From a virus (taxonomy: Duplodnaviria > Heunggongvirae > Uroviricota > Caudoviricetes): a stretch of DNA of 19,784 nucleotides. The stretch lies in the IMG/VR virus record IMGVR_UViG_2690316049_000007, positions 1 through 19,784 of that record; one strand, 5' to 3'. Under the pieces are notes generated by a model. That model saw only the letters and a list, made by a program, of their open reading frames with translations. It did not search any database and was not told where the DNA came from. A program made the translations under genes and the position numbers. Below are positions 1 through 4,721 of this stretch, piece by piece. Within the stretch, counting starts at the first letter, position 1. Every line of letters begins with the position of its first letter.

Positions 1-477
1 TCATACCTCAATCTCTCTGACCGTTCCGCCTGCTTCTTTGAATTTTGCAATCAGGCTGTCAGCCTTATGCTCGAACTGACCATAACCAGCCCCCGGAAGT
101 GAAGCCCAGATATTGCTGCAACGGTCGATAGCCTGACGGATATCACCGCGATCAATCATCGGCAAAGCGCCACGCTCTTTAATCTGTTGCAATGCCACAG
201 CGTCCTGGCTTTTCGGAGAGAAGTCTTTCAGGCCAAGCTGCTTGCGGTAGGCATCCCACCAACGGGAAAGAAGCTGGTAACGTCCGGCTGCTGTTGATTT
301 GAGTTTTGGGTTTAGCGTGACAAGTTTGCGAGGGTGATCGGAGTAATCAGTGAATAGCTCTCCGCCAACAATGACGTCATAACCATGATTTCTTGTTTTC
401 TGACGTCCGTTATCAGTTCCCTCTGACCACGCCAGCATATCGAGGAACGCCTTACGTTGATTATTGATTTCCACCAT
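1..477 (-). CDS. R: Phage endolysin, lambda R-type lytic transglycosylase (158 aa)
   Basis: Complete minus-strand ORF. Translation ([27 protein letters not shown]...GGTVREIEV) matches lambda R as I recall it nearly residue for residue. ATG at 477-475, stop at 3-1. Confidence 0.9.
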
Positions 478-784
478 CTTCTACTCCGGCTTTTTTAGCA
501 GCGAAGCGTTTGATAAGCGAACCAATCGAGTCAGTACCGATGTAGCCGATGAACACGCTCGTTATATAAGCGAGATTGCTACTTAGTCCGGCGAAGTCGA
601 GAAGGTCACGAATGAACCAGGCGATAATGGCGCACATCGTTGCGTCGATTACTGTTTTTGTAAACGCACCGCCATTATATCTGCCGCGAAGGTACGCCAT
701 TGCAAACGCAAGGATTGCCCCGATGCCTTGTTCCTTTGCCGCGAGAATGGCGGCTAACAGGTCATGTTTTTCTGGCATCTTCAT
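461..784 (-). CDS. S: Class I holin, lambda S-type (107 aa) with Met1-Lys2-Met3 dual-start motif
   Basis: Translation [32 protein letters not shown]... matches lambda S as recalled. ATGs at 784-782 and 778-776 give the holin/antiholin dual start. The 3' end overlaps the R start. Confidence 0.9.
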
Positions 785-1028
785 GTCTTACCCCCAATAA
801 GGGGATTTGCTCTATTTAATTAGGAATAAGGTCTATTACTGATAGAACAAATCCAGGCTACTGTGTTTAGTAATCAGATTTGTTCGTGACCGATATGCAC
901 GGGCAAAACGGCAGGAGGTTGTTAGCGCGACTTCCTGCCACCCGCTTTCACGAGGTCATGTGTAGAAGGCCGCAGCGTAACTATCACCGATGAATTCATG
1001 ATAGCCAGTGGCTACGACTCAGTTTGGA

Positions 1029-1155
1029 TTGTGGCGGCCGGAATCGAACCGGCTTCCATCGGTGCGCTGCCGATTGCAGTACGCGCGGCGGTCAGCTACA
1101 TGACTAGTATTTTCACTGTCGCCTATCTGCTAGCTCGCCATTGAGCTTCACCACA
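1029..1155 (-). ncRNA. tRNA-like element, non-canonical (T-arm, anticodon-like arm and acceptor/D-arm-like 5' part separated by about 57 nt)
   Basis: Minus strand reads ...ATCGG-CAGCGCA-CCGAT-GGAA-GCCGG-TTCGATT-CCGGC-CGCCACA-A. This gives a canonical T-arm with TTCGATT loop and a 5-bp stem with 7-nt loop before it. A 5' TGTGGTG (1155-1149) can pair with CGCCACA with one G-U, followed by a D-arm-like GCTC-AATGGC-GAGC. The total is about 127 nt, with no encoded CCA and a loop that has A at position 33 and C at 37, so it is not a standard tRNA. Confidence 0.35.
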
Positions 1156-1220
1156 ACGATAAGAGCACTCGGTGCATTTAAGCCAAGCCCCATAAGGGAG
1201 AATGCTCTTACCTGTTGTGC

Positions 1221-1249
1221 AAACAAAAAAAGCCCACAGGAGGTGGGCT
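1221..1249 (-). terminator. Rho-independent terminator, tR'-like, downstream of the late promoter
   Basis: Minus strand AGCCCAC-CTCCT-GTGGGCT followed by TTTTTTTGTTT: 7-bp GC-rich stem, 5-nt loop, U-run. Confidence 0.6.
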
Positions 1250-1290
1250 TGTGATGGTTGCTGAATGCAAAAGCAGCAGCATATGTGAAT

Positions 1291-1320
1291 ATTATGGCTA
1301 AATGGCTAATTGCATGTCAA
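1291..1320 (-). promoter_or_regulatory. Candidate late promoter pR' (-35 TTGACA, 18-bp spacer, -10 CATAAT) overlapping the 3' end of Q
   Basis: Minus strand TTGACA (1320-1315), 18 nt, CATAAT (1296-1291). Sits at the Q stop and about 60 nt upstream of the tR'-like terminator, the expected position for the Q-modified late promoter. Confidence 0.45.
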
Positions 1321-1816
1321 GGCTTTTAACAGCAAGATGCTTAACTTTCTCAACACGTTTACGCATTTTGAAAGCATTTTGCATTGGTTGGTACAAAACA
1401 AATAATGACGCTTTCAGGATGTCGTCAATTTCGTTTCTACAGGTTGCCAGTGAAGGTTTTCTCCATCCCTCGCCACCACGTCCACACATCTTGCGTGGCT
1501 TTGCAGTCGCGTGATAGTAGGATGCAATTGCTCGCTTAGATGAACCATGAGCGTAGTAGCTGAGGAGGATGCCAAAGGCTTTCTTGTCAATGTACATGAC
1601 GGAATCAACGACCTGAGAAATCAACATTCCATCATCATCATTACACATTGGCCTTGTCATAACTCTTCCCGGCTCTACGCTCTCCATGAACTTCGCTATT
1701 ACGCTGCTCATGCGCTTTTCCAGACGACCTGAATAAACCCATGCGCCCCACAGTTCAAGCCAGCCATTCAGCCACTCGTGCTGCTCTTTGGTGAGGTTTA
1801 GTTCTCTTATGCCCAC
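1298..1816 (-). CDS. Q: Late-gene antitermination protein Q (phage 82/21, QuuD-like family), 172 aa, GTG start
   Basis: Position between nin region and lysis genes. Motifs ELWGAW ... CNDDDGML ... LLSYYAHG resemble the Q/QuuD family as recalled (ERWGAW, ICDDDAM, LLVDYYVVG). GTG at 1816 preceded by GGGAGAAGG. Confidence 0.8.
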
Positions 1817-4135: not shown

Positions 4136-4721
4136 CGATCACCATTTTGCATGGTTTAATCGCCATGCCTGGAGCCAGTTCAAAATCGGAGTCGCACTGA
4201 TTTCCCCACATATCCCACCCGGTCACTTTGTCGCGGCTAAATAACTCACAGCGCGGCACGTCGCCAAGCAACTTAGCTAACATGTCTCTTACGATCGGTG
4301 GTTTTGCACTGTGCTCCATTCTCGGTGCGGTAAAGTGCTGGCATATTGAAGCGTCCATTCTCTCAGGTAACCGCCCTCGAACGGCAAACAAGCAATCCTC
4401 GCTATTTGCCCGGGTCATATGCCCCATTCCGATCGCACTGTTGCCTTTGTGCTTATTGGTTTTGTGCCAAGTAAAGCCTTTCATAGTCATCAACCTGAAT
4501 CCCCACGCCTCAATTACCTTTAGCGCTTCGGCTGGCTGTGTCGGCACCCACCACATCGCTAACAAGCAAGATTCTGGATCCGCTAAATCCCATACTGGCA
4601 GTCGGCAAATGTCCTGAACATTCATAACATCGTATTTATGTCCAGCACCGCGATTGCCATCGTTGGCTTTGTCGCGATATTGCCAAGGCGGATCTGCGTA
4701 AATAAGTTGGTATTTGTTCAT
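4131..4721 (-). CDS. DNA N6-adenine methyltransferase, MT-A70 family (DPPW motif), 196 aa
   Basis: [15 protein letters not shown]... shows the DPPW catalytic motif near the N-terminus, typical of MT-A70-like orphan phage methyltransferases. ATGA overlap with ninB stop. Confidence 0.85.

Follow-up and report, generated by a model that had tools for sequence, protein, structure and literature searches.

Transfer RNA (tRNA) genes lie between the antiterminator gene Q and the lysis genes of several phages, among them tRNA-Thr and tRNA-Asn in Oslo, tRNA-Asn and tRNA-Leu in phage L (PMC8022706), and the ileZ-argN-argO cluster of Shiga toxin (Stx) phages. Phage T4 encodes the species 1 and species 2 RNAs (rnaC and rnaD), small stable RNAs of ~120 to 140 nucleotides (nt), in a tRNA cluster directly after tRNA-Arg. 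The tRNA-like domain of transfer-messenger RNA (tmRNA), the bacterial Y-RNA YrlA, and the tRNA-like structures of plant viruses imitate the acceptor, T arm, and elbow of a tRNA, with the anticodon domain replaced or elaborated. A further point of comparison is the stem-loop of the lambda nutL-N leader, which is reportedly a ribonuclease III (RNase III) processing site that modulates translation of N. Here, we analyze an element on the minus strand of a 19,784-nt stretch of DNA from a Caudoviricetes virus (IMG/VR record IMGVR_UViG_2690316049_000007; this whole stretch is called the window below). It shares its slot and strand with the Q-to-lysis phage tRNAs, and it belongs to a conserved family of structured, tRNA-derived RNAs with a new architecture, in which a tRNA body and an additional 57-nt arm meet in a five-way junction. 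An earlier reading of the sequence (the original prediction) had noted a noncanonical tRNA-like element at 1029-1155 and proposed that it was a decayed or interrupted tRNA, a tRNA-derived structured RNA, or a relic of tRNA-targeted integration.

Between 1157 and 1025, the minus strand folds into an acceptor stem, a D arm, the 57-nt extra arm, an anticodon-like arm, a 4-nt variable loop, and a T arm (Table 1), and the minimum free energy (MFE) fold is a five-way junction with all these arms. The parts named in the original prediction, namely, a T arm, a 5-base-pair (bp) stem with a 7-nt loop, the acceptor pairing UGUGGUG/CGCCACA, and a D arm, are all present on the minus strand. The distance of about 57 nt that it gave between the D arm and the anticodon-like arm is exactly 57 nt (1131..1075) when counted after U1132, and the A33 and C37 that it read in the anticodon-like loop are at 1068 and 1064. 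Its bounds enclose a real structure, but the conserved element is larger and includes a covarying 5' hairpin (1219..1152). Its statement that no CCA is encoded needs qualifying for the window, where an 8-bp acceptor stem is followed by U and then CCA (1027..1025; 8 to 9 bp are possible, GUUGUGGUG/CGCCACAAU), but this CCA carries little weight as evidence, as the register varies between subfamilies and some lack it: phage HK75 has 9 bp and CCA, the copies in N leaders have 9 bp, A, and CCA, and the Skate, L013, and L030 types have none (relatives are cited by L number where they must be told apart).

The element thus described can be compared with tRNAs position by position. A T loop of the form UUCRANY on a 5-bp stem is present, as are the equivalents of G18 and G19. 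Like canonical phage tRNAs, the element has acceptor, D, and T arms, an anticodon arm with a 5-bp stem and a 7-nt loop, and a 4-nt variable loop. Unlike them, it has a 57-nt arm between positions 26 and 27, A8, A33, C37, an acceptor stem of 8 to 9 bp, and an inconsistent CCA, and it is detected by neither ARAGORN nor Rfam. Where a four-way junction has a single-nucleotide joint between the D stem and the anticodon stem, a conserved 57-nt helix is found. U8, U33, and a purine at position 37 are near-universal features of tRNAs; in this family, A8 (1148 in the window) and C37 are invariant, and A33 occurs in all members but L084, which has U33. When we deleted 1131..1075 in silico, ARAGORN with default settings called the remaining 75 nt as tRNA-Arg(GCG), with an 8-bp acceptor, a U discriminator, and CCA. 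The element also differs from the tmRNA, YrlA, and plant virus mimics, as it keeps the anticodon arm and adds another, and it has no match to the YrlA model of Rfam.

The block 1029..1169 is 93 to 99% identical in the lambdoid phages HK75, vB_EcoP-611R6/683R2, PDP110P1/P2, and S.Inf 5-2 and is equally conserved in the Salmonella Skatevirus phages Skate, seszw, Akira, and CECAV_048. The cassette is less similar in Pantoea phage PdC23 (78% identity) and in the P22-like phage BIS08P22 (73%), whose copy lies just upstream of gene N. In IMG/VR, at least 150 contigs carry this cassette of ~140 nt; two pattern scans gave at least 119 contigs each, and a third, for one arm type, gave 72. It is also found in 163/5,426 complete Escherichia coli genomes (~3%), always on the chromosome, and 13 of these genomes hold two copies (NZ_CP148416.1, NZ_CP100927.1, and 11 others). 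A scan of one genome per species gave only four matches, three in Enterobacteriaceae and one in a probably contaminated metagenome-assembled genome (MAG), and matches on plasmids numbered three; we rejected a cellular origin on these small counts. By its distribution, this is a phage and prophage element of Enterobacteriaceae and close relatives. One near-identical copy (175 bits) lies at 4315-4463 (minus strand) of a MAG contig binned as Cellvibrionaceae (L146), which is probably a mis-binned enterobacterial phage contig.

We aligned 63 distinct sequences with MAFFT and assessed a specified structure of 34 pairs. Standard pairs occupy 96.4% of cells, compared with 30 to 47% in a control in which the 3' partners were slid by 1 to 3 columns. 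Double changes occur in 14 pairs of the specified structure; for four of five measures, 0/500 shuffles reached the observed value, while 32/500 did so for the measure of further pair types. RNAalifold returned the same structure from this alignment, with 13 compensatory pairs. The acceptor stem is paired in 98% of cells over 9 pairs, with pair 2 present as UA, GC, or AU and double changes at pairs 1, 5, and 7. The D arm is paired in 98.8% of cells, and its variation is one-sided only. The T stem occurs as GCCGG/CCGGC, GCUGG/CCAGC, GCAGG/CCUGU, GAUGG/CCAUC, GUUGG/CCAAC, and GUAGG/CCUAC, and the base of the extra arm occurs as GCAG/CUGC, GGG/CCC, GUGU/ACAC, and GAGG/CCUC, with double changes at 5 pairs of the distal helix of that arm. 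The anticodon-like stem is invariant in the 63-sequence alignment because our first search key lay in that stem; members retrieved with a D-arm key have AUCAG/CUGAU, AUAGG/CCUAU, or ACGGG/CCCGU.

Throughout the family, the anticodon-like loop reads Y-A-K-C-G-C-A, with C or U at position 32, G or U at position 34, and invariant C35, G36, and C37, the U33 of L084 being the sole departure at position 33. The AA at positions 8 and 9 is invariant. The D loop has 6 nt and varies in its 5' bases (AAUGGC, AACGGC, AGCGGC), with GG followed by C, or by A in PdC23. We considered and rejected a pseudoknot in which GCGC of the anticodon-like loop pairs with GCGCG of the internal loop in the extra arm, as the variants CAUCGCA and GCACGUA, GAGCGUA, and GCGCAAA show no covariation. 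A covariance model built from the 63-sequence alignment has one match in the window, at 1022..1170 on the minus strand, with 171 bits, and the element is well beyond what chance would produce. The original prediction had suggested both a search with covariance models and a covariation analysis across relatives, and it had named an unconserved intergenic segment in related prophages among the outcomes that would speak against it. The first gave no Rfam match above threshold and the 171-bit match to the family's own model; in the second, the structure is supported and the segment is conserved.

The apical loop of the extra arm contains a self-complementary hexamer at the homologous position in 70/70 unique variants. 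Seven types of this hexamer occur: ACUAGU, UCUAGA, UCGCGA, ACCGGU, UCCGGA, GCUAGC, and UCUGGA. The last of these, fixed in a lineage of ~20 contigs, needs G·U pairing for its symmetry and is thus self-complementary as RNA only. Self-pairing of the hexamer is impossible within a single molecule, and a homodimer held by an intermolecular loop-loop (kissing) interaction is the simplest explanation; we infer from the palindrome that the RNA may well form one. Kissing-loop sites with 6-nt palindromes are present in the dimerization initiation site (DIS) of human immunodeficiency virus type 1 (HIV-1) and in the dimerizing A3243G mutant of human mitochondrial tRNA-Leu. As in those two RNAs, the self-complementary hexamer is exposed in a loop; here, different palindromes are used by different lineages. 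Unlike them, the element is a phage tRNA-like RNA with a larger loop (18 to 20 nt), and its dimerization is predicted from sequence. Natural RNA homodimers usually form through palindromic pairing and kissing loops (PMC12990946).

The element is sense oriented in the leader of the late operon in the window, and elsewhere it is found in the pL-N leader or as a unit with its own promoter and terminator. In the late leader context, which is that of the window, it follows a lambda-type or 21/82-type Q and tR' and lies ~240 nt before the holin gene. In the pL-N leader context, it follows pL, boxA, and boxB and ends 22 to 27 nt before the N start codon. The acceptor stem of these N-leader types extends past a bulged A by 8 to 10 covarying bp (AGCUUUGG/CCAAAGCU and AAUGUUUUGG/CCAAAGCAUU), and they share their flanks with the lambda N leader (GGCUUUGGGGUGUGUG ... 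CACACACCACCAAAGCUAACUGACAGGAGA). The Skate-type copy lies between structural genes and antisense to its neighbors, with its own promoter-like TTGACA-17-TAGATT site and a downstream terminator, and the L013-type copy lies between terminators. Among the contexts of the relatives, we found no conserved neighboring protein, and a conserved protein partner was rejected since the neighbors differ (lambda-type Q, 21/82-type Q, N, holins, HNH endonuclease, and structural genes).

Genuine tRNAs are also found near the element or in its place. In L124 and L134, a tRNA-Arg(UCU) lies 5 nt downstream and a tRNA with a CAU anticodon 85 nt downstream, both on the same strand, and in L071, L081, and L038 a tRNA follows on the same strand at 100 nt. 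The tRNA-Arg(UCU) and CAU tRNA of L124, L134, and L142 are of the types found in the Stx phage cluster ileZ-argN/argO, which suggests that the element travels with rare-codon tRNA cassettes. In phages Oslo and CurroJimenez, tRNA-Thr and tRNA-Asn stand between flanks that are 94.7% identical to the window, in agreement with the original prediction, which had noted real tRNA genes of Stx-type lambdoid phages in the Q-to-S interval.

The N-leader-type relatives invite a closer comparison with lambda. They stand on the same base helix as the lambda N leader (GCUUUGGGGUGUG...CACACCACCAAAGC) and at the same distance from the N ribosome binding site. In contrast, the 130-nt apex of the lambda stem is unrelated in sequence, and homology to it was rejected because the family model has no match there and no convincing alignment was obtained. 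The window copy differs further, being in a late leader and having a flanking helix that competes with the acceptor stem rather than extending it; it lies downstream of Q and tR' with a different 5' hairpin, whereas L004, L006, L064, and others have a lambda-type N-leader hairpin. In the same N-leader stem, Hafnia phage Pocitis76 has a compact cloverleaf of 74 nt that shares the acceptor stem of the element, a "tRNA-Gly(CCC)" with G33, which scores 41 bits with the family model. At least three further insert architectures in N leaders share the acceptor, T, and D parts. Of the accounts offered by the original prediction, that of a tRNA-derived structured RNA is supported by this cloverleaf, by the tRNA-Arg(GCG) call after deletion of the arm, and by the covarying helices, including those of the inserted arm.

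As an observation in its own right, the apex of the pL-N leader stem is a hot spot for differing tRNA-like inserts on a base helix of the form GCUUUGG-G(G/A)UGUGGUG ... CACCACA(C/U)C-A-CCAAAGC (Table 1). One of these inserts combines a canonical D arm with a long central domain and is called as tRNA-Arg(tcg) by ARAGORN when introns are allowed. Some others retain only the T arm and the acceptor.

We assign a probability of roughly 0.55 to the reading that the locus is a gene for a tRNA-derived, nondecoding structured RNA, in effect a tRNA mimic, which would be excised by tRNA and RNase III processing, dimerize, and act in trans. Under this model, the RNA would be transcribed with the operon, and, with moderate confidence, RNase P would cut at the 5' end of the acceptor, with trimming of the tRNA type at the 3' end. 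RNase III may assist by acting on the long flanking helices that extend the acceptor stem in the N-leader type or compete with it in the late type. The released RNA of ~135 nt would then form a homodimer through the loop-loop kissing interaction. More speculatively, this dimer could work in trans on a host factor that recognizes the shape of a tRNA or an anticodon loop like that of tRNA-Arg, for example, as a decoy for a tRNA-directed nuclease or modifier. As a side effect, excision would cut the downstream messenger RNA (mRNA) loose from the leader that precedes it (terminator or nut RNA). The RNA itself appears to be selected, rather than a mere cleavage site, because the element occurs as stand-alone units, has been transferred between unrelated phages, and has an invariant anticodon-like loop and a covarying palindrome.

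A more specific form of this proposal, which we regard as an outside chance, is that the dimeric tRNA-Arg mimic is a phage factor for counterdefense or host manipulation. The lineage-specific ("programmable") kissing loop would fix the spacing of two tRNA bodies and thereby trap or inhibit an oligomeric host protein that acts on tRNA, such as an anticodon nuclease or a tRNA-modifying defense effector, with the A33/C37 loop making the RNA a decoy that cannot be cleaved. Being encoded at the very start of the pL and late transcripts, it would be expressed at the right time for such a role. The nearest functional analogues are the T4 species 1 and 2 RNAs, which are nonhomologous. In phage T4 (L149), where rnaD and rnaC lie at 909-1172 on the minus strand, rnaC ends with a tRNA-type T arm, CCGGG-UUCGAAU-CCCGG, and neither rnaC nor rnaD has an equivalent of the D arm, extra arm, or palindromic loop of the element. 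Homology was rejected on the score of the family model, which is 14 bits and equals that of ordinary T4 tRNAs.

Several observations weigh against the trans-acting mimic. All of its steps beyond a conserved structured RNA are read from structure. As single sequences, the folds are not unusually stable (z = -1.1 for the core and z = -2.8 with the 5' hairpin), and the 5' hairpin of the window sequesters part of the acceptor 5' strand, so that the tRNA fold may form there only after processing, or not always. The CCA is not consistently encoded, and the ACCA of the N-leader types belongs to a flanking helix (ACCAAAGC being its 3' strand) that is also present in lambda, where no tRNA-like insert occurs; it is therefore no demonstration of a tRNA-like 3' end. 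Retrieval by pattern inflates the apparent invariance of the regions used as patterns. The N-leader inserts keep the acceptor, T, and D parts and have completely different lower halves, which argues that the "top half," that is, processing, is the common denominator rather than a function specific to the anticodon. A role purely in cis would likewise be compatible with most contexts, in which the element forms the leader just before a gene. Both this location and the varied lower halves of the N-leader inserts show that processing in cis is at least part of the story.

The alternative that survives best, although we consider it unlikely as a full account, takes this last point to its end: the element would be purely a cis-acting processing or insulator module, with the tRNA-like top half as a landing pad for RNase P, the flanks as substrates for RNase III, and the excised RNA without function. 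Cleavage would detach the leader (terminator or nut site) from the mRNA and so set its 5' end, translation, or stability. In keeping with this possibility, the element lies in leaders, 22 to 27 nt before the N start, where it replaces exactly the apex of the lambda N-leader stem; it fills the slot of real tRNAs in other phages; and the N-leader inserts found elsewhere share only the acceptor, T, and D parts. A signal for cleavage alone, however, requires neither the conserved 57-nt arm, with its covarying palindromic loop, nor the invariance of the anticodon-like loop. The Skate- and L013-type copies stand alone, with no downstream open reading frame (ORF) to regulate, and the cassette has moved between unrelated phages as a unit at ~95% identity.

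We also considered whether the element could be a regulatory switch of the attenuator or riboswitch kind, in which the 5' hairpin and the acceptor stem exclude each other and control read-through or translation of the lysis genes. The 5' hairpin has 16 bp and one bulged A, encloses a variable hairpin (1202..1168), and uses as its last 6 nt the first 6 nt of the acceptor 5' strand (GUUGUG); it therefore competes with the full acceptor stem. A duplex scan of relatives found this pairing in all late, Skate, PdC23, and L013 types, with compensatory changes in L030 (GAGAGUA/UACUCUC), L124 (AAAUCAA/UUGGUUU), and L013 (AAUCGCUUUG/CAAAGCGAU) and a perfect 20-bp helix in L071; the register differs by one bulged base between two subfamilies. 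A terminator-like hairpin ~90 nt downstream (938..901) would also suit a switch. Yet the N-leader types lack the competing hairpin and have an extended acceptor stem instead, and no known riboswitch or leader model matches. GUUGUG, the part that overlaps the acceptor, hardly varies, and there is accordingly little covariation to support the alternative pairing (CACAAU or GCAAU opposite AUUGUG in L052/L024). We judge a switch to be improbable. The 5' hairpin might represent an intermediate of processing, help the RNA to fold, or act as a switch. Immediately 5' of CACAACAGG, every late-type relative has a hairpin or terminator, and one also precedes CACAAC-A-GGUAAGAGCA in the window and in all late, Skate, PdC23, and L013 types. 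One sequence within the hairpin module, UGCUCUUA at 1167..1160 (minus strand), equals the consensus of boxA, the NusB/NusE site; we rejected this reading as a coincidence, since the sequence is the 3' strand of a covarying helix and other sequences take its place in relatives.

Another candidate is a genuine decoding tRNA-Arg (GCG or UCG) with an extra arm, which would supplement or replace host tRNA-Arg and might, for example, evade an anticodon nuclease through its altered loop. The ARAGORN call after deletion of the arm points this way, and in some phages the element would be cotranscribed with real tRNAs, including tRNA-Arg(UCU). The determinants of E. coli arginyl-tRNA synthetase (ArgRS) are A20 in the D loop, which is the main one, C35, G/U36, and A/G73 (PMC9976931). 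The arginine identity elements C35 and G36 (PMC9976931) are invariant in the family, with the wobble position 34 varying between G and U. The main determinant, however, is replaced by C in all members but PdC23, where A follows G18 G19, and the discriminator of the window is U or absent. With A8, A33 (one U variant), C37, and a 6-nt D loop without A20 essentially fixed, decoding is unlikely. The acceptor stem of 8 to 9 bp and the lack of CCA in several subfamilies argue in the same direction, and the long helix between positions 26 and 27 would be expected to clash in the tRNA sites of the ribosome. Taken together, a decoding tRNA seems quite improbable.

Standard detectors likewise place the element in no described class. 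ARAGORN found no tRNA or tmRNA gene in the window, and Rfam gave no match at the gathering threshold across its whole length. In 850..1350, with a relaxed threshold of E ≤ 10, there was still no match to the Rfam tRNA model, and the tmRNA and permuted-tmRNA models matched only the 17-nt T arm, at 10 to 12 bits compared with a gathering score of 47 bits. At the same threshold and in the same region, the phage and prophage small RNA families C4 antisense RNA, IsrK, STnc100, AsxR/AgvB, and YrlA gave no match, and the other subthreshold matches (MicC and leader peptides) are driven by the terminator only. The element has no ORF, no pseudoknots, and no G3·U70 of the kind expected of tmRNA, its third acceptor pair being U-A. 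It has an acceptor of 8 to 9 bp and a T stem of 5 bp, as in the 8/5 stems of tRNA-Sec; its variable region has 4 nt, its long arm lies between the D and anticodon-like arms, and it has no UCA anticodon, unlike a class II tRNA or tRNA-Sec, in which the long arm is at positions 44-48, between the anticodon and T stems. The insert between positions 26 and 27 is a single interrupted hairpin of 57 nt with no match to an Rfam intron model, in contrast to a tRNA with a group I intron, where an intron of ~200 nt or more with a P1-P9 core interrupts the anticodon loop.

A decayed pseudogene, a tRNA interrupted by junk, an integration scar, or a site that acts as DNA, such as a protein-binding palindrome, is least probable by far: although no tRNA detector calls the element and real tRNAs are found in the same slot of relatives, compensatory changes occur in every helix including the insertion, the noncanonical bases are fixed, the whole cassette is conserved in at least four phage groups and contexts without an adjacent integrase, and one hexamer type is symmetric only with G·U. 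Two accounts in the original prediction are not supported. For a decayed or interrupted tRNA, the insertion and A8, A33, and C37 are conserved across phage genera and contexts, and no uninterrupted version was found; when 50,697 phage records were searched by BLAST with the armless core, every copy retrieved had the arm, and no similar canonical tRNA was among the matches. For a relic of tRNA-targeted integration, it is the whole cassette rather than a 3' tRNA fragment that is conserved, no integrase lies next to it, and it occurs in pL-N leaders, in late leaders, and as its own unit.

These results expose a gap in annotation: about 3% of complete E. coli genomes, along with lambdoid, P22-like, Skate-like, and Pantoea phages, carry an RNA gene that records either miss or mislabel. 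None of the known copies is correctly annotated: PGAP/RefSeq annotates nothing at this position in E. coli genomes, and public coding sequence (CDS) or gene labels laid over the RNA read "polyubiquitin-A," "hypothetical protein," or, for a stretch of 58 nt, "tRNA-Ser" (Table 1). We found no description of the element in a literature search that included the sequence itself; most subscription journals lie outside the coverage of that search, and an earlier description is possible. Mentions of "tRNA-like" RNAs in a preprint on the Pas small RNA and in the paper on phage L refer to other senses of the term. The architecture is new in that a natural tRNA scaffold is expanded to a five-way junction, and its covarying self-complementary loop predicts a homodimer, a class with few known natural members. 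For the regulation of N, the element in some phages replaces the leader apex that in lambda couples RNase III to N expression, and other phages hold other tRNA-like inserts there; these inserts offer a direct handle on the processing of early gene expression in lambdoid phages other than lambda. If the RNA does act in trans on a host factor that binds tRNA, it would be an RNA-based addition to the phage tactic of carrying tRNAs against tRNA-targeting defenses.

Table 1. Coordinates of the tRNA-like element, of its surroundings in the window, and of related loci in other records
Feature	Location	Strand	Basis or remark
Acceptor stem, 5' strand GUUGUGGUG (7-bp core UGUGGUG, 1155..1149)	1157..1149	minus	pairs with 1036..1028
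AA at tRNA positions 8-9	1148..1147	minus	sequence
D arm GCUC-AAUGGC-GAGC, 6-nt loop with G18 G19 equivalents, then C instead of A20	1146..1133	minus	sequence, MFE, alignment
U, equivalent of position 26	1132	minus	sequence
Extra arm, 57 nt, between tRNA positions 26 and 27	1131..1075	minus	MFE, covariation
Extra-arm base helix GCAG/CUGC, 4 bp	1130..1127 with 1079..1076	minus	covaries
Extra-arm internal loop, AUA opposite GCGCGUA	1126..1124 / 1086..1080	minus	bases invariant or nearly so
Extra arm beyond internal loop: distal helix and 18-20-nt apical loop	within 1131..1075	minus	covariation
Self-complementary hexamer ACUAGU in apical loop; proposed kissing-loop dimerization site	1108..1103	minus	palindromic in 70/70 variants
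Anticodon-like arm AUCGG-CAGCGCA-CCGAU	1074..1058; loop 1069..1063; "anticodon" GCG 1067..1065; A33 1068; C37 1064	minus	sequence, MFE
Variable region GGAA, 4 nt	1057..1054	minus	sequence
T arm GCCGG-UUCGAUU-CCGGC	1053..1037	minus	sequence; T stem covaries
Acceptor stem, 3' strand CGCCACAAU	1036..1028	minus	pairs with GUUGUGGUG; CGCCACA = 1036..1030
CCA	1027..1025	minus	follows acceptor 3' strand
5' hairpin module: CACAAC 1219..1214, bulged A 1213, GGUAAGAGCA 1212..1203; pairs with UGCUCUUAUC 1167..1158 and GUUGUG 1157..1152	1219..1152	minus	MFE of 1015..1256
Q antiterminator ORF	1816..1298	minus	ORF list
pR'-like late promoter TTGACA-18-CATAAT	1320..1291	minus	promoter scan, 11/12 matches, strong, sigma-70-like; overlaps Q 3' end
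tR'-like intrinsic terminator AAGCCCAC-CUCCU-GUGGGCUU and U tract	hairpin 1250..1230, U tract to 1221	minus	terminator scan
Holin gene	784..461	minus	ORF list
Lysozyme gene	477..1	minus	ORF list
pL-N leader copies	L004, L006, L064, L015, L035, L075, L131, L133, L135, L139		
N-leader-stem insert loci	L143 451-530; L196, L252, L168, L190, L268, L202 (N-leader regions); L275 13294-13432(-)		
Mislabelled records	ON470589/ON470594 (L275 21003-21128), MH321493, OP745620, PV340546, PQ186186 (L001 2999-3056)		

In the window, the element sits in a gap of 435 nt on the minus strand between a terminator and the holin gene, and it starts immediately 3' of the terminator U tract. The ORF list and the terminator scan agree with the placement given by the original prediction, between the late terminator (1250..1221) and holin, and the homologous positions in phage HK75 are annotated pR' and Tr'. 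There is no minus-strand ORF of at least 40 amino acids in 785..1297. A protein-coding reading was rejected, as a plus-strand ORF of 48 amino acids at 998..1144 overlaps the covarying RNA helices; it is probably spurious, like the CDSs annotated over relatives. The terminator-like hairpin mentioned above has the form GGCAGGA...UCCUGCC followed by GUUUUGCCC (938..901, minus strand) and lies between the 3' end of the element and the holin gene. The consensus terminator scan left it unflagged because its U run is short, and it may be a second terminator of the late leader or the 3' end of a small RNA transcript.

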